40,000 bases of DNA. Origin: Hirschia litorea (GTDB taxonomy: Bacteria; Pseudomonadota; Alphaproteobacteria; Caulobacterales; Hyphomonadaceae). Below are positions 13,131-29,189 of this stretch, piece by piece. The stretch's first letter is position 1, and the number at the start of each line of letters is the position of its first letter. The stretch is taken from positions 1,288,987 to 1,328,986 of the forward strand of contig NZ_JBHTBR010000002.1 of assembly GCF_042665075.1 (NCBI RefSeq). Direction: 5' to 3'. The translations under genes and the position numbers were made by a program. The notes beneath the pieces are model-generated. The model saw only the letters and a program-made list of their open reading frames with translations. It had not been told where the DNA came from and ran no database searches.

Positions 13131-14291
13131 ATGATGCTACGCATATTGCGGTCCTTGGGGCCTGCCGTCACTTTTCCATCCATGACAGAAGCCATTCGCG
13201 CTGGCTTTGGTGCGTTTGTCGGTTTGGGGCTAACGGGCCTCTTCGTTCTTTCGCCAATCATTGATCTGCAAACGGGTCTCTATCTCGTTGCGCCCTTTGG
13301 GGCCACGTCCGTATTGCTGTTTGCCGTCCCAAACAGCCCCCTTGCCCAGCCTTGGTCGGCCATTGTCGGCAATACCATCGCCGCTATCATTGCAATTGCC
13401 ATTTGCATGTTCATAAGCGATCCAACCTTGAGCATCGCGCTGTCTGTTGGCCTTGCCATCACGGCCACCATTCTTTGCCGCGCCGTGCATCCCCCCGCAG
13501 GCGCTGTTGCGATGACAGTCGCCATGAGTCCCGAAGCCATTGCGCGCCTTGGCTTTTGGTTTGCGCTCACCCCCATCGCCATTGGCACAATCGCGCTTGT
13601 CGCCGTGGCGATCATCTATGCCAAGCTGACAGGGCGTCATTATCCCTTTCGCCAATATAACGAGCCAAACCAGCACAAGACAAATGATTTAGAACCCATT
13701 GAAAGACTGGGCCTTTCAGAACAAGAACTCACCGATATTCTCGAGCGTTATAGCCAATCCTTCAATCTTGGTGTGGAAGACCTTGCCCGCCTTATCGGTG
13801 CCGCCGAATTACAAGCCGCCGCCCATAGAACAGGCCCGCTCATCGCCGACAACATCATGTCGCGCAATCTTGTGAAAGGGCCGCCAACCATGCCGCTATC
13901 AGATGTTGCCGACCTATTCAGACGGCATAAATTCACAGCCCTTCCCGTTGTCGACTCTGAAGGCATTTTTCTTGGCGTTATTTTCCAGATTCACCTGATT
14001 AATCGCGCCAGAGAAGATTCTCTTCGCCTACATCGTGGTTTTGAACATGTCTTAAAAAGGCTTCTTGATCCTAAGAGAGAACAACCCATTCGCGCCGAAG
14101 ATATTATGAGCGTCACCATTCCCCGCGCCTTTATCTCGACGCCAATTGCCGCCCTTCTGCCCTTAATGGCTGAGGGTGATATCGAAGCCATTCCGATCAT
14201 GGATCATAAGAAAATCATCGGCATCGTCACCCGCACCGACCTCATCGCCGCCCTCGCCCGCACCTATTCCCAATCCCCGCCACCCCCCTAG
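13131..14291 (+). CDS. HPP-family membrane protein fused to a CBS-domain pair
   Basis: The N-terminal TM domain carries the signature CRAVHPPAGA. The C-terminal half has two CBS-like units (IMSRNLV..FTALPVVD; IMSVTIP..IEAIPIMD..IIGIVTRTDL). Confidence 0.85.
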   Translation: MMLRILRSLGPAVTFPSMTEAIRAGFGAFVGLGLTGLFVLSPIIDLQTGLYLVAPFGATSVLLFAVPNSPLAQPWSAIVGNTIAAIIAIAICMFISDPTLSIALSVGLAITATILCRAVHPPAGAVAMTVAMSPEAIARLGFWFALTPIAIGTIALVAVAIIYAKLTGRHYPFRQYNEPNQHKTNDLEPIERLGLSEQELTDILERYSQSFNLGVEDLARLIGAAELQAAAHRTGPLIADNIMSRNLVKGPPTMPLSDVADLFRRHKFTALPVVDSEGIFLGVIFQIHLINRAREDSLRLHRGFEHVLKRLLDPKREQPIRAEDIMSVTIPRAFISTPIAALLPLMAEGDIEAIPIMDHKKIIGIVTRTDLIAALARTYSQSPPPP

Positions 14292-14308
14292 CACTCACGA
14301 CCGAATTT

Positions 14309-14322
14309 CCCGCGAAGGCGGG
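14309..14322. repeat. Left copy of 14-bp direct repeat (putative target-site duplication) CCCGCGAAGGCGGG
   Basis: The exact 14-mer recurs at 28208-28221 in the same orientation, and each copy abuts a terminal inverted repeat. Confidence 0.8.
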
Positions 14323-14345
14323 GGGGTATAGTGATATCCAGAATT
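14323..14345. repeat. Left terminal inverted repeat (GGGGTATAGTGATATCCAGAATT)
   Basis: The 17-bp core GGGGTATAGTGATATCC (14323-14339) is the perfect reverse complement of 28190-28206. The match continues with one indel. Confidence 0.8.
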
Positions 14346-14463
14346 AAATAAATCTGCCCATTTCACCAAAGACAACTGGCGTTCTTAAAATCAAATGACT
14401 TTTGCTATATTACAACGTATGGGTGTTTTAGCTATAAGTGAAAATTAGATTCGGGATTTGGGT

Positions 14464-15480
14464 ATGGGTATCGAAGATTATGTAGCTAGCACGAAATTTG
14501 GTATTGATAACTTGAGTTTTCTATTTGGTGCTGGGACATCATTTGAAGCTGGGTATCCACTCATATCTGGGTTGACAGTCTCCGTATTAGGCGGACTTTC
14601 ACCTGATGAAAACAATAATCTATCAGAAGTATTCACAGCTCTTAAAATTGATGTGAACACCCTAAACATAGAAGAGATTTCTGATTGTGTTCTTAAACAT
14701 TACATTGAAAGTCAGGATATACGGTTTTTTTATTTAATGGATAGAATAAGATCATTGATAAGCGAGGTTATTCTAGATGTTTCAAATCCAAACTTGTCCA
14801 ATCATATATCATTTTTTAATTCTCTAAAACGTAGAGCCTTTAATCGCTCCACTGTTGTCTGGATTTTTACGACGAACTACGATTTGCTCTTTGAAGAAGC
14901 TGCCGCACTATCTGGTGTAAACCTGATAAATGGGTTCACAGGGGTATCGACTAGATTTTATTCAGAAGATGAATTTCATGCTGTGCGAGGTACAAGAAGT
15001 GGTAGTCGTTTTGTAGAAACTCCTGCATTAACTGTAAGGTTAGTTAAACTTCATGGATCAGTTTCATGGTATAAGAATGAAACTAATGTTTTTGAATGTC
15101 ATCCTCAACAAATTCCCCATGACAAGCCACGGTGCATGGTTTTGCCTAGACGCAAGAAAGTCATTGAGACTTTAGATACTCCATATCAGCGACTTTTTCG
15201 AATTTCTAGCGAATTTTTGGGAAGCCAGTGCGTGAATTTAATCGCATCGGGATTTAGTTTTTGTGATGACCATATAAATGATACTCTGATCACCTCCAAG
15301 ATAAACAACGGCAAAATTATTCTGGCTAACTTCTGTGAAGTTGAACCTCCAGAATTGACTGACCTCAGATCAAGACCAAATGTCAGTCATATTACTAAAG
15401 ATAAGCTTATCAATGGTGGGATAGAAACAGCGGGTGCAACCGACTTTTGGAAATTCAGCGAATTTGTAAAACTTTTTTAG
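14464..15480 (+). CDS. SIR2-family (SIR2_2-type) NAD+-binding/NADase protein, partner of HerA
   Basis: Motifs LSFLFGAGTS, IFTTNYDLLFE and VKLHGSVSW are typical of defence-type SIR2 proteins. The gene lies immediately upstream of a HerA-like ATPase. The ORF opens at a TTG at 14458, and the first ATG is at 14464. Confidence 0.8.
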   Translation: MGIEDYVASTKFGIDNLSFLFGAGTSFEAGYPLISGLTVSVLGGLSPDENNNLSEVFTALKIDVNTLNIEEISDCVLKHYIESQDIRFFYLMDRIRSLISEVILDVSNPNLSNHISFFNSLKRRAFNRSTVVWIFTTNYDLLFEEAAALSGVNLINGFTGVSTRFYSEDEFHAVRGTRSGSRFVETPALTVRLVKLHGSVSWYKNETNVFECHPQQIPHDKPRCMVLPRRKKVIETLDTPYQRLFRISSEFLGSQCVNLIASGFSFCDDHINDTLITSKINNGKIILANFCEVEPPELTDLRSRPNVSHITKDKLINGGIETAGATDFWKFSEFVKLF

Positions 15481-15494
15481 GGGGAAGTAAAATT

Positions 15495-17189
15495 ATGGCT
15501 TATCAAATTGGAAAAGTCATTCAGGTCAAAGGCGATCAGATTCATATAGAACTAATTGACCATGATTCTTCTAAACCAATCGGTGTTCCAGAAACTATGG
15601 CGGTAGCAGTACCGACTGATGATGGACCAGAAACTCTACTGATCGGGCAACCTGGCTCGTTTATAGAATTATCCTTACCAAATGGAAGATTGCTGTGCTT
15701 AGTCACAGAAATACAAATGAAGCAGGTTAATATTCCTATCTCAGCAGAAAAATCAGCCATGTTGGAAGGTGAGCTTTTACTAGATAGGGCTGCCAGAATT
15801 CTTGTATCAATTCCTGTGGGAACATTTAATTCAAAGAGCGAATTTGAAAGAGGAACGAACTCCCTTCCAACGGTAAATGCTCCTGCCTTTGCTGTATTAC
15901 CTTCCACAATTGACCGTATTTATGCGAGTTTCGCTGAGGGAGACTTTTCTCTAGGAAAGCTTTCTTTGTTTCCAGAACAAGAAGCCAAAATGAATCTGGA
16001 TGCTTTCCTTGGCAGACATGCAGCCATACTAGGACAAACAGGAGGTGGAAAGTCATGGACCGTAGCGTCTATTTTGCAGAAAATATCTAAATTTCCTCAG
16101 TCTACGGTACTACTTTTAGATCTTCATGGGGAATATACGAACGCCTTTGGTGAAGAAGCTGAAGTAATCGCAGCTAATGAAATAGAAATGCCCTATTGGC
16201 TAATGAACTCTGAAGAGTTGTTGGGTCTGATGATTGATCGAGCTGAAAGTAGCGCGCCCAATCAAAATGCTAAATTCAAAGAATTACTTCAGGAAGCCAA
16301 AGAGAGTAATGTAGAAAATAAAAAATTGGGGTTGGAAAAGATTACAATTGATACTCCGGTGTTTTTTGATCTTAAGTCTATCATCGATGAATTCAGAAAG
16401 TTGGATGTAGAAATGGTCGCGGGTAAAACAAAGCCTGTTAAAGGACCGCTCCATGGGGATTTTACTCGACTATTAATGCGTTTAGAATCTCGTCTAAATG
16501 ATCGTCGTTATGATTTAATTTTTAAACCCAAGACCTACAACACTAGCGCATCGATGAATGATCTATTTCGTAAAATTTTGGGTGAGCAGGAAGATGCTGC
16601 AAAAAAAATTGTTGTGTTAGATATGAGTCCGGTCCCATTTGACGTTCGGGGGTCTATAATTTCACTAGTGCTCAGATGCCTTTTTGATTTTTCATATTGG
16701 TATAGTCGAGTAAATGAGTCTCGGTATCCCATTTCCATCTTTGCTGATGAAGCTCACATATATTTAAGCGACAAATCTAGTGATAGTGCACCACGAGAAA
16801 GTGCAGAGCGAATTGCTAAAGAAGGACGGAAATATGGCCTAAGTTTAACGGTTATTAGTCAGCGTCCGAGAGAGTTATCTTCTACAATCTTATCCCAATG
16901 CGGAAGTTTTCTTTGTTTGAGAATCTCAAATCCAGATGATCAATCTTATGTTCGTAATCTACTGCCCGATTCTGTTAGAGGTATTACCTCTATGTTTTCT
17001 TCATTAACACGTGGAGAGGCTATTTTGATAGGAGATTCAATGATGATGCCTACGAGAATCAAGGTTGATAAACCTAATCCTACACCAAATAGTAACGATG
17101 CTTCATTTGTCGATACTTGGTCAAAGGAAAGAGACGTTTTGGATGTTGAAAAAGTATTGCAGGCGTGGAGAAATCAAAAAATTGTTTAA
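15495..17189 (+). CDS. HerA-like (DUF87/FtsK-HerA superfamily) hexameric ATPase of a SIR2-HerA pair
   Basis: Walker A GQTGGGKSWT, Walker B-like IFADEAHIY and the ISQRPRELSSTILSQCGSFLCLRISNPDD block are present. The ATG at 15495 is preceded by GGGGGAAG. Confidence 0.85.
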   Translation: MAYQIGKVIQVKGDQIHIELIDHDSSKPIGVPETMAVAVPTDDGPETLLIGQPGSFIELSLPNGRLLCLVTEIQMKQVNIPISAEKSAMLEGELLLDRAARILVSIPVGTFNSKSEFERGTNSLPTVNAPAFAVLPSTIDRIYASFAEGDFSLGKLSLFPEQEAKMNLDAFLGRHAAILGQTGGGKSWTVASILQKISKFPQSTVLLLDLHGEYTNAFGEEAEVIAANEIEMPYWLMNSEELLGLMIDRAESSAPNQNAKFKELLQEAKESNVENKKLGLEKITIDTPVFFDLKSIIDEFRKLDVEMVAGKTKPVKGPLHGDFTRLLMRLESRLNDRRYDLIFKPKTYNTSASMNDLFRKILGEQEDAAKKIVVLDMSPVPFDVRGSIISLVLRCLFDFSYWYSRVNESRYPISIFADEAHIYLSDKSSDSAPRESAERIAKEGRKYGLSLTVISQRPRELSSTILSQCGSFLCLRISNPDDQSYVRNLLPDSVRGITSMFSSLTRGEAILIGDSMMMPTRIKVDKPNPTPNSNDASFVDTWSKERDVLDVEKVLQAWRNQKIV

Positions 17190-17201
17190 CGATCAGTCAA
17201 T

Positions 17202-18359
17202 TCAGATACTCCAATTGATCAATTGGGCTAATCGCCTAACCAACTCTGGATTTAACCTGCATACACCGTCTGATTGAATATCAAAATCAGCTCCGGTGAA
17301 AGTCTCTTCTTGAACTAGCTTCAATACAACCCGATCTACAACGGGCCGCATAGGTTCCATAATATCAAGTGCAAAAGATGGCCTTGGTGGTCCTGTTCGT
17401 CCCCTTGAGCGGGTATGAATTATACCCAGCATTGGATCAAAACCAGTTGCGATAGCCTGAAGCTGCATTTGTCCAAGAAGCATTGTGTAGACATAGTTCA
17501 ACATTGCATTGACAGGATGTGTGGCAAATACGTTTTCGGCTTTCCCTTCTCTGAAAAGAGAGGTGCGCGATTTAAAAACAAGCCAGTCGTCAGGAATGGG
17601 ATATTGCTTCGTTGATTTCCACTTTAAATCAATTGACTGCCAAGCTCTGAAATAAGCACTCGCCGCTTGGGCTTCGATTGAAGTTAGCTCTTTCAATTGA
17701 CTATGAGTACCGGTCTTCAATTGCTCAACGAATGCAGGTATTTTTCTTAAAGCTGAATCTCTAGCTTTCGACGTTGGCAAATGAGACTCAAGAGTTTCTA
17801 CAGCGTTATTTAATTTATCTATCATCAAAGGCAGAGCGAAAGATATTTGCTTTGCTTCATCCTTTCTAGCTGCTAATTGCCATTCAAATTTTTCTGGATC
17901 AGCGGATAAACCGCCTGATGTAATTAAAGAAAAGAATTGGCCGTTCCATTTAATTCTAATTAGCGGGATGTTTTGTTCAGTTAGCCAATCCAAGGCATCG
18001 AGTGTAATTGTCCCGTGTCCATCCAAAATTATAATTCTTTTAGGACGATCTAATTCACCCTTAAAATAAGATAATTCTCTATTTTTATTTGGGTAATGCG
18101 TATTACCATCTTTTACAATTAAACGAGCTTTATCGACTTTTAGCGATAAGCCATGGCCCGTTAAAATTAAAGGCTGGTTTTCACGTTCACGGCGCTTTCT
18201 AATTGGTAAAAATGATTGGTATTTGTCTAACCAATAATTGCAGCGATTAGGCCATTCGTGAGAAATGTTATCAGTATTTAAATCCAATTTATTCAATCTA
18301 ATTGTGTCCTTAAGCAGCCAATCAAAACGAATAAGAAATGTCCGATTTAAACACATCAA
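17202..18359 (-). CDS. cas1: Cas1-family integrase (casposase-like, stand-alone)
   Basis: The N-terminal beta domain reads LILTGHGLSLKVDKARLIVKDG..IILDGHGTITLDALDWL..IPLIRIKWNG. The catalytic-domain motifs IEAQAASAYF (Glu), NAMLNYVYT, GIIHTRSRGR (His) and SFALDIMEPMRP (Asp/Glu) are all present. Confidence 0.85.
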   Translation of the reverse strand: MMCLNRTFLIRFDWLLKDTIRLNKLDLNTDNISHEWPNRCNYWLDKYQSFLPIRKRRERENQPLILTGHGLSLKVDKARLIVKDGNTHYPNKNRELSYFKGELDRPKRIIILDGHGTITLDALDWLTEQNIPLIRIKWNGQFFSLITSGGLSADPEKFEWQLAARKDEAKQISFALPLMIDKLNNAVETLESHLPTSKARDSALRKIPAFVEQLKTGTHSQLKELTSIEAQAASAYFRAWQSIDLKWKSTKQYPIPDDWLVFKSRTSLFREGKAENVFATHPVNAMLNYVYTMLLGQMQLQAIATGFDPMLGIIHTRSRGRTGPPRPSFALDIMEPMRPVVDRVVLKLVQEETFTGADFDIQSDGVCRLNPELVRRLAQLINWSI

Positions 18360-19033
18360 ATACTATCACTTATGAATTGATTTCACTAGAACATTCTTGG
18401 GAAGATTATTCCGATTTAGGTATAGATATTTACAATTATAGAAATGAATTAAAACGCTTACGTCACGACAATGGACAAGAAACTAGAGAAGAATCTGATG
18501 CTAGATTACAAAAACTTTTTCAACGTGAAGAAGGTTTAAAGACTCAGCATTTTGATAGAATTCACAACGGGTATTTTGATGCGTTTGGCAATGATATAGA
18601 TAAAGGGGCGGAAAAAACCAAAATACCGCACGCTATGTTTGATGATAGAATTCGTGATTTCGAAATTAATTGGGATTCAAGCACTTTAAAAGCTCATGGG
18701 AAAACGTTCATAGGTATTGAAGTAAGGCCGAGTGATCTCTTGTTGAGAGAAATATCTGAGAGCAAAGACCAATATTCTCAAACGGCAGCCCACATTGTTT
18801 CAAAACCGAATCCATCTAAACAAGGCAGGCCTTCACGTGGCGAACAGATTATGAAGGCAATTCTTCGTCATCACAATGAAAATAAGGCGTGGTTTGACTT
18901 ACCACCTACGGAACGTCGAATTCAGTATTTTAAATTCATAAAAGAAGTTTATCAAAAATGCCCTAAAACAAGCCAAGGTTTTTCATATAAGACTATTGAA
19001 AAATACGAGAAGATTTTTAAAGAAAGTCTATAA
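18338..19033 (+). CDS. Hypothetical protein (231 aa), element-encoded
   Basis: A long AT-rich ORF divergent from cas1. Its 5' end overlaps the annotated cas1 start by 22 nt. No motif recognised. Confidence 0.45.
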   Translation: MSDLNTSNTITYELISLEHSWEDYSDLGIDIYNYRNELKRLRHDNGQETREESDARLQKLFQREEGLKTQHFDRIHNGYFDAFGNDIDKGAEKTKIPHAMFDDRIRDFEINWDSSTLKAHGKTFIGIEVRPSDLLLREISESKDQYSQTAAHIVSKPNPSKQGRPSRGEQIMKAILRHHNENKAWFDLPPTERRIQYFKFIKEVYQKCPKTSQGFSYKTIEKYEKIFKESL

Positions 19034-19043
19034 AAAACAAGGC

Positions 19044-19108
19044 CTATAAAACCTATTTAAAAAAATCACTTTATAGGTTTTTATCTAACTTGCCCATAGG
19101 TTTTATAG
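19044..19108. promoter_or_regulatory. Cluster of three copies of a 13-bp motif ATAGGTTTT(T)ATAG; putative operator/iteron upstream of the polymerase operon
   Basis: CTATAAAACCTAT (19044-19056) is the exact reverse complement of ATAGGTTTTATAG (19096-19108). A third copy, TATAGGTTTTTAT (19072-19084), lies between them. Confidence 0.4.
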
Positions 19109-19168
19109 AGTTCGTTATCTCGATTGTGAAGCGGTTCCCATTGGTCCGCACATTAATCGAGAAGCAAC

Positions 19169-19747
19169 ATGGCCCGCAAACGCGACTATAAAGCAGAATA
19201 CGAACGCCGCTTAGAACGCGGCCGAAAAAAAGGATTGTCGCGCTCACAAGCGCGCGGCCACCCAAAAAAAGGTGAACCCTTGGCAAGTTCACCTCAAGTC
19301 AAACCCAAATCAGATGAGAAGATAGAAGCCGCTCTTCGACACATGCAATTGGGCATGTCGATGACAACAGCTGCGCGCACTGAGCAACTCTCATCCAAAC
19401 GTCTTAGCCAATTCATACACGCGCACGGTATTGCTAAATGGCAAAACCGCAAATGGATCATGAAGGATAGCAGGCCTCGCCGCGTTCCTCATATCAAAGG
19501 TTCATACGCAACCACCGTAACGGTGCCAGACTTTGCAAACGCAAGTCGTGCAGGCCAATACCATAATGCAGTCGGACGGTTTGTGAACACAGGTGATCTG
19601 TCATTCATCGAGCCTTTTGAGGGTGACAGCATCATCGACACCAAAGGTCGTTCTCACCCCTTTGAAACTGACCCCAACAATCTCTTTCGTTACGCTATGA
19701 AAGATGAACCCCCATTCCATGAAATTTATCAAATCGTCTCAAACTGA
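19169..19747 (+). CDS. Basic protein with probable helix-turn-helix (192 aa), first gene of the polymerase operon
   Basis: It has an Arg/Lys-rich N-terminus (KRDYKAEYERRLERGRKKGLSRSQARGHP) and an HTH-like stretch (MSMTTAARTEQLSSKRLSQFI). An AAGGAG for the next gene lies 14 nt downstream of its stop. Confidence 0.55.
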   Translation: MARKRDYKAEYERRLERGRKKGLSRSQARGHPKKGEPLASSPQVKPKSDEKIEAALRHMQLGMSMTTAARTEQLSSKRLSQFIHAHGIAKWQNRKWIMKDSRPRRVPHIKGSYATTVTVPDFANASRAGQYHNAVGRFVNTGDLSFIEPFEGDSIIDTKGRSHPFETDPNNLFRYAMKDEPPFHEIYQIVSN

Positions 19748-19761
19748 AAAGGAGTATTCCA

Positions 19762-20139
19762 ATGGACGATATTATTACTGATGCAGACATTAGACATGAA
19801 AATGCGGTTAGCCGCCTCGGAGGCACAAACAAGCAATGCCTTCATTGCGGTGAAGAAGATGCAAGATGTTTAGAACTACATCATCTCGCCGGACAAAAGT
19901 ATCATGATGACGTGGTTCCATTATGCCGAAATTGCCATCGCAAAATATCTGACACTCAATTAGATCACCCTGATGATCTAAATGCAGCAATGCCTGTCAT
20001 GTTTTCAATAGGTCGCTATCTTTTGGGAATAGCAGATTTCCTTTTGATGATTGCTCATCGTCTGCAAGAGTTTGGACAGCAACTTATAGAATGGGCTCAA
20101 GGTTGCGAATTGGTTCCAATTGAGGAGTCGGTTCAATGA
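19762..20139 (+). CDS. HNH endonuclease
   Basis: It has the zinc and HNH signature CLHCGEED..LELHHL..PLCRNCHRKI. Its stop overlaps the polymerase start (ATGA). Confidence 0.8.
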   Translation: MDDIITDADIRHENAVSRLGGTNKQCLHCGEEDARCLELHHLAGQKYHDDVVPLCRNCHRKISDTQLDHPDDLNAAMPVMFSIGRYLLGIADFLLMIAHRLQEFGQQLIEWAQGCELVPIEESVQ

Positions 20140-22877
20140 TCAAGCTAGAACACAAAACAGCTTACGTTCGCGCCTATTCGGAGAAAACTCAAAAGAAGCC
20201 AGTTAGCCAACATAAGAAGCGAAACAATGTTGATACACCGTCTGACTGGTCACTCGTATTTGATTGCGAAACAAACATTGATGCAGCTCAAGCATTACGG
20301 GTGGGCTTTTATCAAGTCCGCAAGTCAGGTGAGCTTAAATCAGAGGGCTTATTTTATGATCCTGACAATGTGTCGAACTCTGATCTTAAAACCATCCAGT
20401 CTTATGCTGCGAACCATAAGCTAAACATTGGAACCGTCCATGAGTTTAGACACAAAGTATTTCTTCGTGTTGGATATGAAGCACGCGCGTCGATTATAGG
20501 GTTTAATCTACCTTTCGATATATCCCGCATTGCTTTGGACTGTGGTCCTGCGAGAGGAAGCCTTAGAGGGGGCTTTACCTTCAAGCTTTCTGAAGATCGC
20601 ACCAATCCACAAGTCAGAGTGAAGCATCTTAGTTCAACAGCCGCGCTCTATGACTTTGCTAAACCTAAAGGACAAGACACGCCACGCGGAATGCGTAAGA
20701 AGGGTTTGAAAGTTGAACCTCATCGAGGTTATTTCATTGACATAAGAACGATTGCTATGGCCCTGACGAGCCGTAAGCATAGTCTAAAGGGCTTGGCTCA
20801 GTTCCTGAAGGTGGAGACGCAAAAACAAGAGACTGAAGAGCATGGCGGCCCTATAACAGAAGCCTATCTTGATTACGCGCGTGCTGATGTTCAAGCGACT
20901 TGGGAATGCTACGTAAAACTCAAAGCACAATATGACAGTCACGGGTTAGAAACACCGCAGCACCGCATTTTGTCTGAGGCTAGTATTGGAAAAGCTTACC
21001 TTAAACAAAAGCAAGTGAAGCCTTTGCTTGAATGTCAGACTGATCTTCATAGAGAAGACATTGGCCCGATTATGAGTGCTTACTTTGGTGGCCGTGCTGA
21101 AGCGCGTATCCGAAGAGAAATTACTCAAGTTCATTATGCTGATTTCAAGAGCATGTATCCAACGGTAAATGCACTAATGGGGCTTAGTCGCTTTCTTATC
21201 GCAGATGGTTATACCCAATCCGATACAACACAAAATACACAAGAATTCTTGAACACTGCTACTCTTGAAGATCTTCAAAGCAAGAGCACTTGGAAACAGC
21301 TTACAACGCTTGTTTGGCTTAAATCTGATGATGACCTTTTACCCTTCCGCTCCAAGTATGGAGATGAGAAAGGCACGCTCACCATTGGGCTAAATCATAT
21401 CTCTTCAGATACAACGCTCTGCTACTCTCTTGCAGATGTATTGGCTTCCAAAATTCTAACAGGTAAGACGCCTCAAATTGAAAAGGCCATAACCTTTAAA
21501 GCTGGTCCAAAACAAGATGACATTCTGCCAATCAATCTATTTGGAAAGCCTGAATATCGCGTTGATCCACTTAATGAGGATGTGTTTGTAAAGTTCGTCA
21601 ATTTACGTGATGAAGCCAAAGCCCGCAAAGACCCGTTACAACAAGCCATTAAGATCATAGCGAATGCAACTTGCTACGGTATCTTCGTTGAGGTCTTAAG
21701 AGATGAAGCGCCTAAACCTGAAACGCTAAACATCTATGGTCCTGATGGTAATGGCTTTGAAACGAGTTCAACAGCTTTAGAAGAGCCTGGAAAATACTTT
21801 AATCCTGTCTTGGCTGTTCTCATAACAAGTGCAGCGCGACTTATGTTAGCTTTGGCAGAACGTCTCACCACAGATCAAGGCTTAGCTTATACATTCTGCG
21901 ATACTGACAGTATTGCGATGACTAAGCCAGATGACATGAGTGACAAAGATTTCTATCAGCGCGCTCAAAGTGTCATTGATTGGTTTGAGCCGCTAAATCC
22001 ATACCAGAAGCAAGGCTCAATTCTTCAAAGTGAAGATGCAAATTACCATGCTGAAACTGGCAAGTTGGAACCTCTTTATTGTTTAGCTATCTCAGCTAAA
22101 CGCTATGCTTTGTTTAATTTGGATGAAGACGAAAAACCAATCATTAGAAAAGCGTCCGCGCATGGTTTAGGCCATTTGATGGAGCCTTATAATGCAAGCA
22201 ATCCTGCACCTTGTATTCCTAAGCCTGTTATCCCCGTTCATGAGATAGGTGTGAAGCATTGGCAGCATGATTTTTGGTATGTGATCATCACGTCTTTTCT
22301 TAAAGGTGAACCTAACAAAATACCGCGTGATTTCCATCCTGCTTTAGCAAAGCCAGCCCTTAGTCGTTATGGAGCGACTAGCCCTGCAATGCTTTCTTGG
22401 ATGAAACATTTTAACGAGGGTAAGACATACGCTCAAAGTGTGAAGCCGTTTAACTTCCTTACAGCACCGCTTTTGAGAACTGAATGGTACACGCCTGCAC
22501 AATTTGAAGGTAATATACCTGGAGCCAATCCAATCCGCGGCCGTCCTAACGAAGCGTCTAAACCAAAACCGATAGCTCCTTTTGAACGTGATTGCGATAT
22601 TGCGATAAGTAGGATGTTTGATCGGAAGACAGGTGAAACCGTCTCAAAAGAAGTGCTCAAAACCTATGCTGCAGCGCTTGCATCCTACCATTTCAGTCCT
22701 GAAGACAAGTTTGATAATGGCGGATCGTATGATCACGGACCGACACGCAGGAAACACATAAAAGTAGATGGTCTTCAGCTTATTGGGAAAGAAGCAAACA
22801 AGGTTGGAGAAGCTGGACAGCCTGATCCGGTAGCTACGGTGGTAGTCGAATATTCAGACAGTAACGGAATGACGTAA
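20136..22877 (+). CDS. Family B DNA polymerase with 3'-5' exonuclease domain (casposon-type)
   Basis: Motifs present: ExoI LVFDCETN (D43/E45), ExoII GFNLPFDISRI, ExoIII YARADVQATWECY, motif A ADFKSMYPTV (D336), motif B KIIANATCYGIF, motif C FCDTDSIAM (D589/D591, nt 21900-21908) and KxY as AKRYAL. Confidence 0.9.
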   Translation: MIKLEHKTAYVRAYSEKTQKKPVSQHKKRNNVDTPSDWSLVFDCETNIDAAQALRVGFYQVRKSGELKSEGLFYDPDNVSNSDLKTIQSYAANHKLNIGTVHEFRHKVFLRVGYEARASIIGFNLPFDISRIALDCGPARGSLRGGFTFKLSEDRTNPQVRVKHLSSTAALYDFAKPKGQDTPRGMRKKGLKVEPHRGYFIDIRTIAMALTSRKHSLKGLAQFLKVETQKQETEEHGGPITEAYLDYARADVQATWECYVKLKAQYDSHGLETPQHRILSEASIGKAYLKQKQVKPLLECQTDLHREDIGPIMSAYFGGRAEARIRREITQVHYADFKSMYPTVNALMGLSRFLIADGYTQSDTTQNTQEFLNTATLEDLQSKSTWKQLTTLVWLKSDDDLLPFRSKYGDEKGTLTIGLNHISSDTTLCYSLADVLASKILTGKTPQIEKAITFKAGPKQDDILPINLFGKPEYRVDPLNEDVFVKFVNLRDEAKARKDPLQQAIKIIANATCYGIFVEVLRDEAPKPETLNIYGPDGNGFETSSTALEEPGKYFNPVLAVLITSAARLMLALAERLTTDQGLAYTFCDTDSIAMTKPDDMSDKDFYQRAQSVIDWFEPLNPYQKQGSILQSEDANYHAETGKLEPLYCLAISAKRYALFNLDEDEKPIIRKASAHGLGHLMEPYNASNPAPCIPKPVIPVHEIGVKHWQHDFWYVIITSFLKGEPNKIPRDFHPALAKPALSRYGATSPAMLSWMKHFNEGKTYAQSVKPFNFLTAPLLRTEWYTPAQFEGNIPGANPIRGRPNEASKPKPIAPFERDCDIAISRMFDRKTGETVSKEVLKTYAAALASYHFSPEDKFDNGGSYDHGPTRRKHIKVDGLQLIGKEANKVGEAGQPDPVATVVVEYSDSNGMT

Positions 22878-23461
22878 TGGGTTGGGAACGAATGACTGAA
22901 ACAATTAGAGTTTGTGATTGTGGAGAAGGTACCATTACGTACATCTATGAGATGGATGATTGGAACAGAACTCGGAGTTGGGAAGAATTCCAATGCCTGC
23001 ATTGCAAAGCAGAACATCAAATCATCATCGATAAGCGTCAACGAGATCACTTAAAGCGTGAGGCTCTTCTCAAGGAAGCTCAAAAGTTAGCTACTGATTG
23101 CTATCTTGAAAAGTGGTTGGAACATTACAAAGGCCATTCATCGAAGAGAGTTTGGGAAACGCTAACAGGAGGAAAAGTTTATCCAGCGCTTGGAACATTC
23201 TATAGGCATGTTCGTCGTCGTGGACTGGAAGTGGAACTAAAATTTTGGTTCTCCAACGAACTACAAGAGTCACTGAAAATAATAGATGTCGTTGATCAAG
23301 AGATATCCAAACCTCTTGAAGATCGGAATAGAATTCCCGAATTATTTCGACGCTCATTAATCTCCATCTTGGAATATCCAATCAAAGATCGGGCGGAGCG
23401 GCGATTCGTAGAATGGCGGAGCTTTAATATCGCAGACATCTTCGCCGAGGCGGCCGCGTAG
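22877..23461 (+). CDS. Zinc-ribbon-containing hypothetical protein (194 aa)
   Basis: It has CDC..(N33)..CLHC cysteine pairs at the N-terminus. Its start shares one nucleotide with the polymerase stop (TAATG). The last 105 nt overlap the convergent WD40 gene. Confidence 0.5.
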   Translation: MGWERMTETIRVCDCGEGTITYIYEMDDWNRTRSWEEFQCLHCKAEHQIIIDKRQRDHLKREALLKEAQKLATDCYLEKWLEHYKGHSSKRVWETLTGGKVYPALGTFYRHVRRRGLEVELKFWFSNELQESLKIIDVVDQEISKPLEDRNRIPELFRRSLISILEYPIKDRAERRFVEWRSFNIADIFAEAAA

Positions 23462-26400
23462 GATGGAGGCTTTGTCTATCATGTTTTGGTCTATCAGGCG
23501 GATGTAGGGGGTTTCTTTTCCATTCTTGTCTTGTTCTAAAGAAGCAATTAGATGGGAATTACAAAAGCGATCGAAATCATCTTTTTGCGGTTTGATTAGA
23601 CCTGTCCATGTAATATCCCATATACGGACTGTGTTGTCCCAACTCCACGTGAGGATATGTGTTTCATCCTTACTAAAGACGGCACCACTGACCCAGTTCC
23701 CATGTTGTAATGCGGATCCGACCTGCAGGCCAGTTTGCGTATCCCATATCCGCGCGGAGTTGTCATTACTCCAAGTAAGGATACTTGTTCCATCCCTGTT
23801 AAAGACGGCACCATTGATCTCATCCTCATGCTTTAATGAGGCCCCCACCTGCAGGCCAGTGCGAATATCCCATATCCGCGCTGCATGATCATTGCCCCAT
23901 GTGAGAACGCGCGTTTCACCCTTATTAAAAACAGCACCATTGATCCCATCCTCATGTTTTAATGAGGTCCCTACCTGCAGGCCGGTGTGTGTATCCCATA
24001 TCCGCGCTGCATGATCATCGCCCCATGTGAGGATGAGTGTTTCATCCTCGTTAAAGGAAGCACCATTGATATGATCCTCATGCTTTAGAGCTGGTCCAAT
24101 TTGCTGGCCTGTATATACGCCCCATATCCGCGCTGTGTTGTCCCAACTCCATGTGAGGATGCGTGTTCCATCCTTGCTCAAGACGGCACCATTGATACCA
24201 TCCTCGTGTTTTAGAACTGTTCCAATTTGTTGGCCTGTATATACATCCCATATCCGCGCAGTATTGTCCCAACTCCATGTGATGACGCGTGTTCTATTCT
24301 GGCTAAAGACGACATCATCGGTTTCCCCCACATGCTTCAATGTGAAGGATCCAATCTGCTGGCCGGATTGTACGTCCCATGTTCTCACTGTGTTGTTCCC
24401 ACTCAGTGTGAGAACGCGCGTTTCACCCTTATAAAAAACAGCACCATTGATCCCATCCTCATGTTTTAATGAGGTCCCCACCTGCAGGCCGGTGTGTGTA
24501 TCCCATATCCGCGCTGTATCATCATCGCCCCATGTGAGGATGCGTGTTTCATCCTCGTTAAAGGAAACACCTTTGATCCAATCTTCATGTTTTAGTACGC
24601 GTTCATTTTGTACATTCCATATTCGTACTGTATCGCCCCCACTCAGTGTGAGAATGCGTGTTCCATCCTTGCTAAAGGTGGCACTACTGACCCAATCCTC
24701 ATGTTTTAGAGTTGGTCCAATTTGCTTACCGGTTTGTGCGTCCCATATTCGTGCTGTATCATCATCGCCCCATGTGAGGATGCGTGTTTCATCCGCGTTT
24801 AAGGAAGCACCATTGATATTATCGTTGTGAATTAAGGCTGGCCAGACCTCTCTCCCTGTTTGAGCATCGAAGCGAAGCGTTGCGTTAATCGTTATTGTAA
24901 ATATATATGTGCCGTCTTTGTTTAAAATGGCACCTTCAACCTTACTAGTATGCTCCATTGTAGGGCCAATTTGCTGGCCTGTTTGTGTGTCCCACAACCG
25001 CGTTGTGTTGTCTCCACTCCATGTGAGGATGCGTGTTCCATCCTTGCTAAAGGTGGCACCACTGACCCAATCCTCGTGTTTTAGAACTGGTCCAATTTGC
25101 TGGCCTGTATATACATCCCATATCCGCGCTGCATCATCATCGCCCCATGTAAGGACGCGCGTTTTACCCTTGTTAAAAACAGCACCTTTGATCTCGTTCT
25201 CATACTGTAGTGCGGGTCCTATATGCTGCCCGGTTTGCACATCGTAGATGCCGGCGGTGCTATCATTTTTCCAGGTGAGTATACGTGTTCCATCCTCACT
25301 AAAAAGGGCGTCATTGACATTTTCCTCATACTGTAACGTGGGACCAATCTGCTGTTTCGTTTGTGTATCCCATACCCGCGCGATGCTATCATTACTCCAA
25401 GTAAGGATACGTGTTTCATCCTCAATAAAGGAGGCCCCAATTATCTGTACCCCCCCACTAAAGAGGGAGTTATTGACATAATCAACGTGTTTTAGGGGGG
25501 AGCCGATCTGGTGCCCGGATTGTGCGTCCCACAACCGCGCTGTGTTGTCCCTATTCCATGTGAGGATGCGTGTTCCATCCTTGCTCAAGACGGCACCATA
25601 CACATGGCCCTCATGCTTGATACTCAATGTATGGTTTGAGAACTTCTGGGCATTTGACCTAAATCGGCTAAAGGCTTCTTTAGATGCTGGAGACAGGAGT
25701 GTATCTTGAGCGCCAAGAATTACAAGTTTGGATGCTCGCAAGTAATCGCCTTCATCTTCATACTGTCCAGCGACACTTGCAGTAATCAGAGATTCTATTC
25801 TTGCATCATTTCTTATTTTCCTGATTGTTTGCCACCCACCCCACAGAAGGCCTAGAAATGCAATAGAAATGGTGGCGAGAGTGAAACGTTGCCAAAAGAT
25901 TCTTTGTTTTTCTTTTTCCTCAGCTTTACGAATTTGCTCTTCTTCTTTGTGTTTAATCGTTTCCTGATGCGTGTGACATGCATTTAGATAGACCTCTCCC
26001 ACCGGTCCGATGAGTGATTTCAGATCTGCACGCTTAAGAAGGTCCAATGCTTGCGTCAATCGTTCGCCACTGTGAACAAGCAGATCGCTCTTGTGTTCTA
26101 TTTCTTGAGTTTGCTGCTTACGCCATAATTTCGCGGCTTGCTGAACCTGATGCAAGTGCTCAAGTTGAAAACGTTCTTCACCTATCCATGCAGAAAGTCC
26201 ATGCCAATGCCGCAGCACGGCTTCATGTGAGACTTCAATACAGCTTTCGGCTTTGACTATTGATTGCACAAGTAAGCGTTCATCTACAAAATGCGCAACC
26301 AGCTTATGTAGATGTATGGGTAAGCTAGAAAGAAAGGATACACGCCGCATAGGGGATGAATTTGCTTCATCAAGTTGGACAAGCCAAGGAATAAAAATCT

Positions 26401-27799
26401 GGCGAGCGAGTCTGTCTAGCTCTGATCGACTTGAAGGAAGGTCAGGGTCTGCTTCTGCTCGTTTAAATACAGCTTCAACCGCTATATTAATAGCTCCATC
26501 CAGGCCGCCAAGTCCTTCATTATATTTGATAAGTTCCAGAAGATTATTATCCACATATTCTTCAGTCAGTCTCTCAAGCGTGAAGGCCAATAAAGGCAGA
26601 GCATCAGCCGTATCAAGATCTTTTATAAGCTTTTCAGTAAGTGCCGGTTCAATCTTTAATGGTTTTTTTGAAAGCCCCGCGGGTCCTTCAATCACTTCTT
26701 TGAAGGCTTGAGGTGGAAGTGGAGGAAGATTAAACAACTCTAATTGACGTGCCAGATGTTCATGTTTCTGAAGTAAACTGAGACTATCTGAACGGATAGT
26801 GGCAATGACAACTAGGTTCGTGACCCTTGTAAGGCAATGCGTCAATAAATTTATCGCATCCTTACCTGAATGATTGTCCACTGAGAAAAGCTCTTCAGCC
26901 TGATCTATGGGAAGAACAATTGTGGGAGCACGCAGTGTTTGGGTTTCGCCCGCAGCCTTTGCAAGTCGCTCCAAGTGTCGGACACGCTGAGCTGCTATGT
27001 CATTTAAAGATTTTATACTCCGTTCTATAATTTGATTTGATCCTGCTTCCTCTATATTGACAGAGATTGCCTTTAACACCCCTGTTTCACCCGACATTGC
27101 ATCTTGTCTCGGGCGAAAAATCGGGAGGGTGATGAAATTTTCTGTGTCCCGCTGCAAGCGAGACAATAGTCCCGCTTTTAAAAAACTGGACTTACCGGCT
27201 CCGGAAGCCGCAGCTATGGTCAAAATACGCCTCGGTAATCCGCCCCGCATTTGACGTAATTTATCTAAACCCGCTATGATATGCGAATCCCGACCAAAAT
27301 ATATAGCCGCATCTTGCTGTTCAAGTGACCGCAAGCCGCGATAAGGCTTGCGGTCAGGCTCATTTTCCGGAGGCCACATGAAGTGTTTTGGTGATATCTG
27401 CGCTCGTGTGAGCCCGAGCCTCAAATTTTCCAATCCGCTTTCACGGGCATTTAAGGTGGAAATATCTGCAAATTGAATGGAAGCAACAAAATCAGGAATA
27501 GAGGTCGCGAGCGGTTTGATAATGACAGGAAAAATAGGTTTTCCTGATGATTCAGCATGATTGAATTCACGGAGGCATTCGGGTGAACCAATCCAGTTAT
27601 CAGATAGACACACTACCACAGCCTGACAATTATGTCCTACAAAATTGAGACGCTCACGCCATCTATCCCCAGAAACAAATTCGGAAAGATCGATAAAGAT
27701 TTGGGAAGGAGCCCACCCGCCAGATTCAATCAGCCAGTGTCTAAGTGCTTTGGCCTCCGAATTGTCTTCATTCGAATGACTAATAAAAATCTCACTCAT
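23357..27799 (-). CDS. TIR - nSTAND-type P-loop NTPase - transmembrane helix - 16x WD40 repeat protein
   Basis: The TIR-like N-terminus reads IFISHSNEDNSEAKAL. It is followed by the nSTAND1-like hallmark KPYRGLRSLEQQDAAIYFGRD and Walker A AAASGAGKSS (about 27188-27214). One hydrophobic helix follows (FTLATISIAFLGLLWGGW, about 25832-25888), then 16 units of about 42 aa (..DGTRILTWS.DNTARIWD..TGQQIGP.LKHED.I.GA.F). The ATG at 27799 is preceded by GAGGA; a GTG alternative lies at 27817. Confidence 0.9.
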   Translation of the reverse strand: MSEIFISHSNEDNSEAKALRHWLIESGGWAPSQIFIDLSEFVSGDRWRERLNFVGHNCQAVVVCLSDNWIGSPECLREFNHAESSGKPIFPVIIKPLATSIPDFVASIQFADISTLNARESGLENLRLGLTRAQISPKHFMWPPENEPDRKPYRGLRSLEQQDAAIYFGRDSHIIAGLDKLRQMRGGLPRRILTIAAASGAGKSSFLKAGLLSRLQRDTENFITLPIFRPRQDAMSGETGVLKAISVNIEEAGSNQIIERSIKSLNDIAAQRVRHLERLAKAAGETQTLRAPTIVLPIDQAEELFSVDNHSGKDAINLLTHCLTRVTNLVVIATIRSDSLSLLQKHEHLARQLELFNLPPLPPQAFKEVIEGPAGLSKKPLKIEPALTEKLIKDLDTADALPLLAFTLERLTEEYVDNNLLELIKYNEGLGGLDGAINIAVEAVFKRAEADPDLPSSRSELDRLARQIFIPWLVQLDEANSSPMRRVSFLSSLPIHLHKLVAHFVDERLLVQSIVKAESCIEVSHEAVLRHWHGLSAWIGEERFQLEHLHQVQQAAKLWRKQQTQEIEHKSDLLVHSGERLTQALDLLKRADLKSLIGPVGEVYLNACHTHQETIKHKEEEQIRKAEEKEKQRIFWQRFTLATISIAFLGLLWGGWQTIRKIRNDARIESLITASVAGQYEDEGDYLRASKLVILGAQDTLLSPASKEAFSRFRSNAQKFSNHTLSIKHEGHVYGAVLSKDGTRILTWNRDNTARLWDAQSGHQIGSPLKHVDYVNNSLFSGGVQIIGASFIEDETRILTWSNDSIARVWDTQTKQQIGPTLQYEENVNDALFSEDGTRILTWKNDSTAGIYDVQTGQHIGPALQYENEIKGAVFNKGKTRVLTWGDDDAARIWDVYTGQQIGPVLKHEDWVSGATFSKDGTRILTWSGDNTTRLWDTQTGQQIGPTMEHTSKVEGAILNKDGTYIFTITINATLRFDAQTGREVWPALIHNDNINGASLNADETRILTWGDDDTARIWDAQTGKQIGPTLKHEDWVSSATFSKDGTRILTLSGGDTVRIWNVQNERVLKHEDWIKGVSFNEDETRILTWGDDDTARIWDTHTGLQVGTSLKHEDGINGAVFYKGETRVLTLSGNNTVRTWDVQSGQQIGSFTLKHVGETDDVVFSQNRTRVITWSWDNTARIWDVYTGQQIGTVLKHEDGINGAVLSKDGTRILTWSWDNTARIWGVYTGQQIGPALKHEDHINGASFNEDETLILTWGDDHAARIWDTHTGLQVGTSLKHEDGINGAVFNKGETRVLTWGNDHAARIWDIRTGLQVGASLKHEDEINGAVFNRDGTSILTWSNDNSARIWDTQTGLQVGSALQHGNWVSGAVFSKDETHILTWSWDNTVRIWDITWTGLIKPQKDDFDRFCNSHLIASLEQDKNGKETPYIRLIDQNMIDKASILRGRLGEDVCDIKAPPFYESPLRPIFDWIFQDGD
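23606..25625 (-). repeat. Tandem array of about 126-bp coding repeats (16 WD40 units) with high internal DNA identity
   Basis: The periodic recurrence of ..CCCATATCCGCGC.. and CCATGTGAGGATGCGTGT.. is visible by eye. The block 23901-24070 matches 24408-24577 with about 7 mismatches in about 170 bp. Confidence 0.85.
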
Positions 27800-28183
27800 G
27801 ATCGTCCTCACAATCACTTATACTAGCTTTCAGAAGATATCAGGCAAATAATGAAGCGCAAAGTTCAATTATTATGGAGAAAGTGGGGTAAGTTATAAAA
27901 TTAACGTTTGGACATAAAAATAGACCCAATGGAATATGCTTACGAACGGACTAAGGTACAGTTAGCTTTTTTATAATGTACTTCCAATCAGCAAAGCCAT
28001 TAAGCAGTTTGATAATACTTCTTGGGTCTTTCCTGTCAGAGTTTTTAACTATATTTCAAATGTTACCACAGAGGTAAGTGCTCGCAAATGCTGTGCTGCT
28101 CATCAATCCGTTTGAGGTATTTTTATTCCGTGGTGAAAAATAATAAGGTCACCATCAGTATGGGAAGTAGTGTATGACTAATG

Positions 28184-28207
28184 AATTTCGGATATCACTA
28201 TACCCCC
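28184..28207. repeat. Right terminal inverted repeat (AATTTCGGATATCACTATACCCCC)
   Basis: Reverse complement of the left TIR. The core 28190-28206 is a perfect match to 14323-14339. Confidence 0.8.
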
Positions 28208-28221
28208 CCCGCGAAGGCGGG
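28208..28221. repeat. Right copy of 14-bp direct repeat CCCGCGAAGGCGGG
   Basis: Identical to 14309-14322 and directly abuts the right TIR. Confidence 0.8.
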
Positions 28222-28601
28222 AACCCAGCCCAAACAATATAGACGGGCAAAGCCCGCCACATTCAATTGTCTGGATACCAGATCAAGTCTGGGAAAACGA
28301 GCTGAAAGGATATTTAAAAAACAGCAAACGCCGCCCCCGCAACCAAACCAGAGGAAAGCAAATCACTCTCCCAACCGCCTCCCCAACGAAAGTTGGGGTC
28401 CAGCACGGAGGTTCAATTTAAACAGATGGAAAGAATTTATTCCTGATTAGTAGATTTTTATCAAATTAGAACGTATATTAATTATTGTGCTGACGGAGAG
28501 GTAATGTTTGGACTAAAACCCCTCCGTCAGACACGGGCCTCACCTCGTAATGTACTGCTTCCTTCTGGAAGGGAAGCTTGAGGCAACTTTAGAGGGGTAT
28601 C

Positions 28602-28994
28602 TTACTTTGGTTTCCATCGTCCTGTGGAATCATCAAAGCTAATTAGCCCTTCTTTTTTGAATCTTGATAGATGACTACTCAGTGTCCCTATTTTCAGCCC
28701 ATTGATCTGTTTTTCGATAAACTCAAACAACTCAGTCAAACTGTAACCATCAAGGCGTTGAGCCGATTCTTTCGTACTAAGATCTCGAGAAGTATTCAAT
28801 CGCTCTAAAACTTCTCCCAACAAATAAAACTTCAATACATTTCGCTTATTGATAGTGCTGTTGAGTGAGAACAACTGATTTTCTTCAACATGTTCTTTAA
28901 TTTTCTTCAGCTGTATTACGTACCTTTCTAAATCATATATTTCCATCTCAGTAGATCGAATTTCATCTTCTAATTTTTGAAAACTATTCTGCAT
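28602..28994 (-). CDS. Hypothetical protein (130 aa): N-terminal coiled coil plus possible winged-helix C-terminus
   Basis: An AT-rich ORF outside the TIRs. Its composition is unlike the flanking core genes. The C-terminus (LKIGTLSSHLSRFKKEGLISFDD) resembles a wHTH recognition helix and wing. Confidence 0.4.
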   Translation of the reverse strand: MQNSFQKLEDEIRSTEMEIYDLERYVIQLKKIKEHVEENQLFSLNSTINKRNVLKFYLLGEVLERLNTSRDLSTKESAQRLDGYSLTELFEFIEKQINGLKIGTLSSHLSRFKKEGLISFDDSTGRWKPK

Positions 28995-29112
28995 AAGTAT
29001 CTATATAACGCACTAAACGCGCCACTGCAATAGCTATCATTGCAGCAGAACCACACCTTAAAATATGAAAAACTGTTTAAAATCAGCTACATAGAAAAAA
29101 GCTATGAGCGAC

Positions 29113-29146
29113 AATATAATATATGGATTCATCCATATATTATATT
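29113..29146. promoter_or_regulatory. Perfect 34-bp palindrome (16-bp arms, 2-nt spacer) AATATAATATATGGAT-TC-ATCCATATATTATATT
   Basis: The arms 29113-29128 and 29131-29146 are exact reverse complements. The palindrome lies about 120 bp upstream of the 28994 start and about 45 bp downstream of the recQ stop. Confidence 0.4.
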
Positions 29147-29189
29147 GAAATAAATGTCAACTTTTTTGATAAACCTGACGAATTACCCC

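Follow-up and report, generated by a model that had tools for sequence, protein, structure and literature searches.

We describe an element of 13,885 base pairs (bp) in the chromosome of Hirschia litorea, an alphaproteobacterium of the Hyphomonadaceae, and conclude, with a probability of about 0.93, that it is an intact casposon of family 3. Casposons are proposed ancestors of the CRISPR adaptation machinery. The element occupies positions 14323-28207 of the stretch that we analysed (the window: 40,000 nucleotides (nt) of contig NZ_JBHTBR010000002.1, positions 1,288,987 to 1,328,986), and its length, which counts base 28207, agrees with that given in an earlier note on the same DNA. By computation we delimited its terminal inverted repeats and an exact 14-bp target-site duplication, located its empty site in the sister species Hirschia baltica, and found that its ends, duplication length and core genes are conserved among relatives in which the cargo turns over. 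The boundaries, the empty site, the affinities of its Cas1 and the conserved core of the terminal repeats all support the casposon interpretation proposed in that note, which had not seen the defence nature of the cargo.

Ends of the element and its empty site

The two copies of CCCGCGAAGGCGGG that the earlier note had placed around the element (Table 1) are exact, lie on the same strand, and are the only matches in the 40 kb even when two mismatches are allowed; at this tolerance shuffled sequences gave a mean of 0.18 matches, and two matches were reached in 2 of 100 shuffles. Immediately inside them, the 17-nt repeat GGGGTATAGTGATATCC occurs at 14323-14339 on the plus strand and at 28190-28206 on the minus strand, with no other match at up to three mismatches (0.03 expected). 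The imperfect extension claimed for these perfect repeats was also recovered: the inverted repeat reaches 31 nt at 87% complementarity and is the longest of the region in a repeat search. Both copies of the 14-mer abut the ends of the terminal repeats to the base. The G+C content changes from about 0.50-0.54 in the flanks to 0.35-0.47 within the element.

The insertion is intergenic, between a gene for an HPP-CBS membrane protein and the RecQ side of the locus, and the left duplication begins 17 nt past the HPP-CBS stop codon. The Cas1 and PolB of the element are 100% identical to NCBI proteins of H. litorea. The window and H. baltica ATCC 49814 share the gene order alkaline phosphatase, HPP-CBS ... 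RecQ, deacetylase, MlaC, and their HPP-CBS proteins are 98% identical. In H. baltica (CP001678.1), HPP-CBS is followed by 19 nt, one orthologous hairpin and then the right flank of the window, with no element in between, which is the junction that the earlier note had named as proof of insertion. The unoccupied hairpin lies at about CP001678.1:971,472-971,485; the element-free site reads ...accaaatttcTCGCGAAAGCGAgaacccagcccaaacaat... and the sequence 3' of HPP-CBS ...cacgaccaaatttcTCGCGAAAGCGAgaacccagcccaaacaataaagacgggcaaagg. In BLASTN, the left part of this region matched window 12931-14320 at 94.5% and its continuation matched 28210-28252 at 93%; in H. baltica these matches have 10 nt in common, as predicted by a target duplication. 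The insertion is real and apparently recent. In the duplication 14 of 14 bases and in the terminal repeats 17 of 17 are undegraded, while the flanks are 5.5% diverged from those of the element-free H. baltica.

The target itself has a marked symmetry. The duplication folds as a 5-bp stem with a GAAG loop and, beyond what the earlier note had observed, it is the centre of a longer palindrome: the reconstructed empty site folds with a 7-bp stem on which the 14 bp are exactly centred. The site reads TTTCCCGCGAAGGCGGGAA in H. litorea and TTTCTCGCGAAAGCGAGAA in H. baltica, and the arms of the hairpin change in a compensatory fashion (CTCGC-GAAA-GCGAG in the latter, CCCGC-GAAG-GCGGG in the former). 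We considered whether this hairpin is an intrinsic terminator and rejected the idea, because no T-run follows it at either site, so that it is not a canonical one. A scan for GC-rich hairpins found no second CC...GG hairpin of the target type in the window, which also has no tRNA gene; Rfam gave no match there, nor in the relative L008 (L numbers denote loci in this study).

The DNA on the right side of the insertion is not alike in H. litorea and H. baltica (window 28252-29184 against L086 7224-9216): H. baltica has a 604-amino-acid (aa) pentapeptide-repeat gene where the window has just a 130-aa open reading frame (28602-28994). A stretch of 87 bp in H. baltica (L086 7245-7331) has its counterpart upstream of HPP-CBS in the window, at 12846-12932.

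Casposase, core genes and cargo of the element

The casposase is a solo Cas1 homologue whose mechanically called reading frame extends to 18359, beyond the start in the NCBI annotation. Its catalytic residues (E208, H294, D311 and E314) are invariant in 20 homologues, and its best match among solved structures is 6OPM (E 3e-18), which we take to be the casposase of Methanosarcina mazei. Its identity is 46% (E 9e-123) to the Cas1 of L035, 52% to that of L089 from Henriciella marina, and 24% to a CRISPR type II Cas1, so that by pairwise similarity it groups with casposon rather than CRISPR proteins. The first of these loci was matched by strain name to the published HypCY54-C1, both being from Hyphomonas sp. 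CY54-11-8. The second is probably HenMar-C2, matched by species and by its SGNH-hydrolase/glycosyltransferase cargo, not by published coordinates. Its assignment to HenMar-C1 was tried and rejected, since its Cas1 and terminal repeat differ from those published and its cargo fits HenMar-C2. Both loci share the terminus GGGGTATAGT. On pairwise Cas1 identity to these two elements and the shared core block, we file the H. litorea element as a putative new member of family 3.

The Cas1 also stands alone, as the earlier note had it. PADLOC gave no Cas2 match among the nine large open reading frames of the element (those outside it were not scanned for cas2), and a search limited to the 40-kb window found no CRISPR array and no Rfam CRISPR repeat. 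Scans with Pfam, PADLOC, NCBIfam and PHROG detected no other recombinase in the element, again in line with the earlier note.

Table 1. Features of the H. litorea element and its left flank, in window positions
Feature	Position	Strand	Evidence
HPP-CBS membrane protein, left flanking host gene, outside the element	13131..14291	+	98% identical to H. baltica protein
Left target-site duplication CCCGCGAAGGCGGG	14309..14322	+	Exact match; single orthologous copy in H. baltica
Left terminal inverted repeat	14323..14350	+	GGGGTATAGTGATATCC perfect, then imperfect AGAATTAAATA
SIR2-family NADase, first gene of SIR2-HerA pair	14458..15480	+	PADLOC SIR2 PDLC04081, E 7e-132, full length; Pfam SIR2_2
HerA ATPase/helicase, second gene of pair	15447..17189	+	PADLOC HerA PDLC04105, E 6e-172; Pfam DUF87/HerA
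Casposase, solo Cas1 homologue, 364 aa (NCBI annotation)	17202..18296	-	Pfam Cas_Cas1, E 1e-40
231-aa protein, variable slot between casposase and p192	18338..19033	+	Weakly conserved among relatives
192-aa core protein (p192)	19169..19747	+	Homologues in 31 of 33 elements, 40-61% identity; no family match
HNH nuclease, 125 aa	19762..20139	+	PHROG HNH endonuclease, E 1.3e-5
Family-B DNA polymerase (PolB), 913 aa, full length	20136..22877	+	Exo/Pol motifs; model fold; PHROG DNA polymerase, E 2.5e-13
194-aa protein, two CxxC pairs	22877..23461	+	No family match
TIR-nSTAND1-WD40 protein, 1486 aa	23357..27817	-	Pfam TIR_2 E 3e-16, nSTAND1 E 4e-66, many WD40 families
Right terminal inverted repeat	28179..28207	-	Perfect 17 nt at 28190-28206; 28207 is an extra C
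Right target-site duplication CCCGCGAAGGCGGG	28208..28221	+	Exact 14-bp match to left copy

The polymerase, which the earlier note took to be complete, keeps every exonuclease and polymerase motif. Residues of Exo I (D43, E45), Exo II (N124, D128) and Exo III (Y247, D251), and those of motif A (D336...Y341), motif B (K506, N510, Y514, G515) and motif C (D589 T D S), are invariant in 30 homologues. In Foldseek, its AlphaFold model (predicted local distance difference test, pLDDT, 88.5; predicted template modelling score, pTM, 0.87) has matches at E ~1e-12 to E. coli Pol II, phi29, archaeal PolB and Pol alpha, and the modelled fold confirms a complete family-B enzyme. Against solved structures, its profile reached just E ~0.4-0.6 to Pol alpha and Pol II and the single sequence had no match.

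The HNH nuclease read in the element by the earlier note is borne out by its PHROG match (Table 1), by a match of the profile of 21 homologues to the McrA HNH domain (E 5e-4) and by the invariant residues C26, C29, H41, C55, C58 and H59; in Pfam the gene falls below threshold (E 0.036). The core protein p192 gave weak profile matches (KorA-like, E 0.09; DUF7022, E 0.1) and is possibly DNA-binding. We found no Pfam, PADLOC, NCBIfam or PHROG match for the 231-aa protein, and no homologue of the 194-aa protein in other delimited elements. Cas1, PolB, HNH and p192 are all full length, and the first three keep their motif residues. The block PolB-HNH-p192-variable gene-Cas1 is common to all 33 delimited elements and is flanked by cargo slots on both sides.

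In H. litorea the SIR2-HerA pair fills the slot on the far side of Cas1, and the 194-aa protein and the TIR-STAND-WD40 gene share the one on the far side of PolB. PADLOC recognised SIR2 with 438 bits and HerA with 571 bits, both full length, and the two genes overlap by 34 nt. The 1486-aa protein combines a TIR domain at its N terminus with an nSTAND1 NTPase and about two WD40 propellers, and its WD40 blades correspond to a 126-nt unit repeated in tandem at 23614-24823 (7.8 copies with about 72% matches). This architecture suggests that it works like the Avs/STAND defence proteins, as a predicted sensor-effector. SIR2-HerA and TIR-STAND-WD40 are predicted to be two abortive-infection defences that deplete NAD+.

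Relatives, their hairpin targets and their cargo

The casposase has 733 database homologues at E <1e-5, and in a scan of one genome per species at least 271 loci encode a relative. Most are from Alphaproteobacteria (Hyphomonadaceae, Sphingomonadales, Rhodobacterales, Rhodospirillaceae, Caulobacterales and Hyphomicrobiales), with a few from Gamma- and Betaproteobacteria. A search anchored on the core of the terminal repeat delimited 34 loci, representing 32 distinct elements. The terminus GGGGTATAG is conserved in all 34, each of which has its own duplication of 14-17 bp; the conservation of this core in homologous elements, on which the earlier note had staked its interpretation, was therefore found. 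The termini of the relatives read (G)GGGTATAG and continue into a semi-conserved stretch.

We analysed the duplications of 33 elements, after removing duplicates and adding the window element and L089, the junctions of which were read by eye. Their length is 14 bp in 12 elements, 15 bp in 11, 16 bp in 5 and 17 bp in 5; the first base is C in 32 of the 33, and the last is G in equally many. As proportions that are indicative, because the sample consists of loci with both ends found, stems of 5 bp or more are present in 18 of the 33 duplications and stems of 4 bp or more in 24, compared with 1.0% and 7.4%, respectively, of 15-mers taken as controls from the same flanks. Once the empty sites are reconstructed, about two thirds have a stem of at least 7 bp, and most place the hairpin dyad no more than 1 nt from the middle of the duplication. 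In the subclade of the window element (Cas1 at least 59% identical), a 14-bp duplication of the form CCNGC-N4-GCNGG was present in all nine elements checked. Some targets resemble bidirectional intrinsic terminators with A- and T-runs (L027, L035, L036, L051) and others look like palindromes of the repetitive extragenic palindromic (REP) type, while non-palindromic duplications form a minority (L034, L037, L085).

Several relatives add observations of their own. Hairpins are repeated near two elements (L001 at 2296, 15261 and 15301; L002 at 1250 and 15266). Extra copies of the terminal repeat abut the duplication in L023 (1-3336), L024 (3830), L037 (14687) and L064 (14113), and in L023 the neighbouring unit includes part of a PolB; all have the appearance of tandem casposons, or of solo ends, with one duplication in common. 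In two Henriciella genomes, casposons that are not the same lie between the host genes DinB_2 and gyrB (L002 1-1703 and 15222-18495; L089 1-741 and 17311-21092); their hairpin duplications are CCGGCGAAGGCCGG and CTCCCGAATCCGGGAG respectively and their cargo differs, which suggests independent insertions in one intergenic region. PolB is split in two reading frames (about 600 and 300 aa) in L002, L014 and L089, which suggests that these are decaying copies; that of the window is intact. Genes for GIY-YIG nucleases of 94-100 aa lie just outside casposon ends in L002 (1384-1668) and L004 (10809-11111). The closest match to the casposase in the genome collection (75%) is on a 3-kb contig (L006, CAYGPY010000335.1) of a metagenome-assembled genome (MAG) labelled Vampirovibrionales; the contig has a typical end and a CCCGCTTGCGCGGG hairpin, and is probably mis-binned.

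The cargo differs even between close relatives. The closest complete one, L090, has terminal repeats nearly identical to those of the window, a core that is 80% identical in nucleotides from PolB to p192 and 76% over cas1, and a hairpin duplication, CCCGC-CTAC-GCGGG, and yet its cargo is wholly different (an ABC-3C-type set with CTD12, MC6/8 and DUF2326). In L091, with a Cas1 75% identical, a 1115-aa protein takes that cargo position. The matches in a scan of 115 cargo proteins from 31 elements include Lamassu (LmuA, LmuB), restriction-modification of types II and IIG, PifA, MADS mad2, KAP NTPases, ABC-3C components, BrxC/D, HEPN-Toprim and Mrr; non-defence matches include ParB/RepB and resolvases. 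Matches were counted per family and not per element, so that the description of this cargo as rich in defence genes is qualitative.

One relative carries a CRISPR system as a passenger. L092, with a Cas1 59% identical to that of the window, is a complete element of 13,274 bp (5660-18933) with terminal repeats GGGGTATAGTTATTTCC and GGGGTATAGTGATATCC and an exact 14-bp duplication CCCGCTTTCGCGGG (5646-18947 with the duplications). Beyond its PolB, and within these boundaries, we found an 18-repeat array (36 nt per repeat) together with cas2, type II cas1 and a 1137-aa cas9, so that a complete type II-C CRISPR-Cas9 locus is inside exact terminal repeats and duplication. The same element occurs in L008 (Hyphomonadaceae MAG UBA5336), L093 and L094; the last is from another sample and has a much shorter array. 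A left end at 2483 in L008 (GGGTATAG) was rejected, as the longer contig L092 puts the end beyond cas9. The locus has no bearing on the window element, which is without cas2 or array, and shows the reach of cargo exchange. Elsewhere, L041 (Cas1 43% identical; 1-800 and 10001-12017) has a type II-like array and a cas2-like reading frame about 9.5 kb from its casposase, with one end resembling a terminal repeat at 12010-12017 and the other beyond the DNA examined.

Weighing the casposon reading and its implications

Several points weigh against the reading of this element as an intact family-3 casposon with defence cargo, or at least blunt it. The right end has one extra C, base 28207, since the right junction has eight C (28203-28210) and the left seven G; this is the one-nucleotide ambiguity in the G/C runs that the earlier note had flagged, and the extra base could be the fifth of the terminus, a product of homopolymer slippage, or the sign of a 15-bp stagger that includes one mismatch. 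The placement in family 3 follows pairwise Cas1 identity to two elements matched to published ones, not a tree. Foldseek ranks E. coli Pol II and phi29 equal, which does not separate an RNA-primed from a protein-primed PolB, and its sole Pfam match is a weak one to DNA_pol_B_2. Both SIR2 and HerA miss the NCBIfam equivalog cut-offs (98 vs 500 bits and 355 vs 850 bits) and the pair is therefore a divergent subtype, while the TIR-STAND protein has no convincing PADLOC defence model (its one PADLOC match is a weak match to a repeat model, HEAT-ARM_XIII, E 1e-6). The hairpin statistics cover about 40% of the loci, with a possible bias to clean cases. Finally, the exact element is known as one copy (cluster size 1, one contig), and for this reason its current mobility, which we infer, is not demonstrated.

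This last point is also what would be expected if the casposon were immobile, fixed in the host and possibly domesticated as a defence island. Its two cargo systems could favour retention by the host, and some relatives do decay, as the split polymerases of L002, L014 and L089 indicate. We nevertheless consider this unlikely, given that Cas1, PolB, HNH and p192 are full length with their catalytic residues present, and that the duplication and terminal repeats are intact base for base next to flanks that have diverged from H. baltica. A different division of labour, in which HNH or p192 mainly carries out or targets integration and Cas1 is secondary, could appeal to the fact that both are nearly as conserved as Cas1. 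It is very improbable, because duplications of 14-15 bp are the published signature of casposases (PMC4779613, PMC5137440) and archaeal casposons need Cas1 alone in vitro.

Two further readings would deny that the element is a casposon at all, and we can give neither any real credence. The 14-mers might be dispersed REP-like hairpins that happen to surround an unrelated island, as the earlier note had cautioned; the 14-mer is indeed a hairpin, and similar hairpins repeat near the elements of L001 and L002. However, there are just two copies in 40 kb, both flush with the terminal repeats, exactly one at the H. baltica site, and the same juxtaposition recurs with other hairpin sequences in 32 other elements. 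Nor does it seem at all credible that the Cas1 is the remnant of a CRISPR adaptation module in an island moved by other means. CRISPR Cas1 profiles do match it (E ~1e-43), as expected of any Cas1 homologue, but its identity is 46% to a published casposase and 24% to a CRISPR type II Cas1, neither cas2 in the element nor an array in the window was found, no other recombinase was detected in the element, and its arrangement with PolB, HNH and p192 stays the same throughout 33 elements.

For a family-3 casposon, the most likely course of integration can be drawn from the published biochemistry of archaeal casposases. The casposase would bind both GGGGTATAG... ends, and a Cas1 oligomer would attach the two CCCC-3'OH ends to the strands of the target at points 14 bp apart. 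These points would be symmetric about the dyad of a GC-rich hairpin, in this case TT-CCCGC-GAAG-GCGGG-AA. Gap filling would duplicate the central 14 bp, and the element's own PolB would presumably copy the element. A two-fold symmetric target (C-N12-G on the hairpin dyad) fits a symmetric integrase complex, and its recognition may depend on sequence or on extrusion of a cruciform. Across the clade, casposases appear to cut symmetrically about the dyads of GC-rich hairpins, both REP-like palindromes and intrinsic terminators, so that a short palindromic repeat is what becomes duplicated. Reuse of such a site appears to give arrays of element, repeat and element, as in L023, and the two slots for cargo seem to act as shuttles for defence systems. 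That all this reflects a large, undescribed alphaproteobacterial clade of family 3, with hairpin-dyad targeting and exchangeable defence cargo, both unreported in the literature that we searched, is a tentative proposal to which we give slightly less than even odds.

Comparison with known elements helps to separate what is shared from what is new. Like the window element, HenMar-C2 and HypCY54-C1 (Krupovic et al. 2016, PMC4779613) have the core order PolB-HNH-192-aa gene-variable gene-Cas1, hairpin duplications and intergenic insertions, and come from the same bacterial family; the PolB of HypCY54-C1 is 51% identical to that of the window. They differ in their insertion sites, in the split PolB of L089, and in cargo, which is glycosyltransferase and SGNH hydrolase, or ParB and resolvase, instead of SIR2-HerA and TIR-STAND. 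NitAL212-C1 of Nitrosomonas sp. AL212 (Krupovic et al. 2014, PMC4046053), with HenMar-C1 a founder of family 3, is similar in having 14.4 kb, a 14-bp duplication and terminal repeats starting with GGGGTAT, but its Cas1 has extra zinc-binding as well as helix-turn-helix domains and its duplication, AGCCGGTACTGCCC, lacks palindromic symmetry. The published description of HenMar-C1 gives a terminal repeat of 37 nt and a duplication of 1 nt (PMC4046053), and ends like its own, GGGATAAGGG, are found in the relatives L055 and L078. In its published repeat (PMC4046053, Figure S2), CTCCCGGATCGGGAG stands just outside GGGGATAAGGG (compare L055 3338-17164), and by analogy part of this repeat may be a palindromic target, although the published arms are not exact direct repeats.

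Farther afield, the archaeal casposons of family 2 (Aciduliprofundum boonei, Methanosarcina mazei), the sole ones with both biochemical and in vivo studies, share Cas1-driven integration, duplications of 14-15 bp and PolB with HNH; unlike the window element, they have archaeal hosts, target tRNA 3' ends or specific intergenic sites, and are distant by sequence. Tandem insertions in Methanosarcina share a duplication, the pattern that we see in L023. Pipolins, described as carriers of defence islands (PMC11551731), are likewise integrative elements that encode a PolB and combine a small core with exchangeable, defence-rich cargo, but they rely on tyrosine recombinases and tRNA att sites, and their PolB is primer-independent. 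In 2024 a survey of 48 casposons, most of them archaeal, reported few defence genes (PMC11551731), unlike what we find in the relatives. At a time when SIR2-HerA was not yet known as a defence system, the 2014 paper had remarked on a HerA-like helicase and on "divergent Sir2-like" proteins in casposons (PMC4046053). It and the 2016 paper place bacterial casposons in intergenic regions, with hairpins unmentioned (PMC4046053, PMC4779613), and a 2024 review of CRISPR systems in mobile elements treats casposons only as ancestors of the adaptation module. The conserved terminus, the hairpin-centred duplications, the defence cargo that includes CRISPR-Cas9 and the wide alphaproteobacterial spread thus appear undescribed in the literature searched. 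A 2023 paper refers to an unpublished casposon survey, and the family patterns may therefore already be known to specialists.

Casposons as a kind have been known since 2014 but seldom studied, and the H. litorea copy is an unusually clean new member. To our knowledge, about eight bacterial casposons have been described, and the casposases studied so far are archaeal ones of family 1 and family 2. The H. litorea element, intact, in a cultivable mesophile and with an empty site in a sister species, offers a practical first test system for a bacterial casposase. If the family patterns hold, they give a testable target rule, a symmetric cut about a hairpin dyad. Such a rule, if true, would be linked to the palindromic nature of CRISPR repeats, and the duplication of a hairpin repeat would be a living parallel to the duplication of repeats in CRISPR arrays. 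Palindromes once read as part of casposon terminal repeats might then be targets. Casposons would also join the vehicles that move defence systems, including CRISPR-Cas9, among Alphaproteobacteria.

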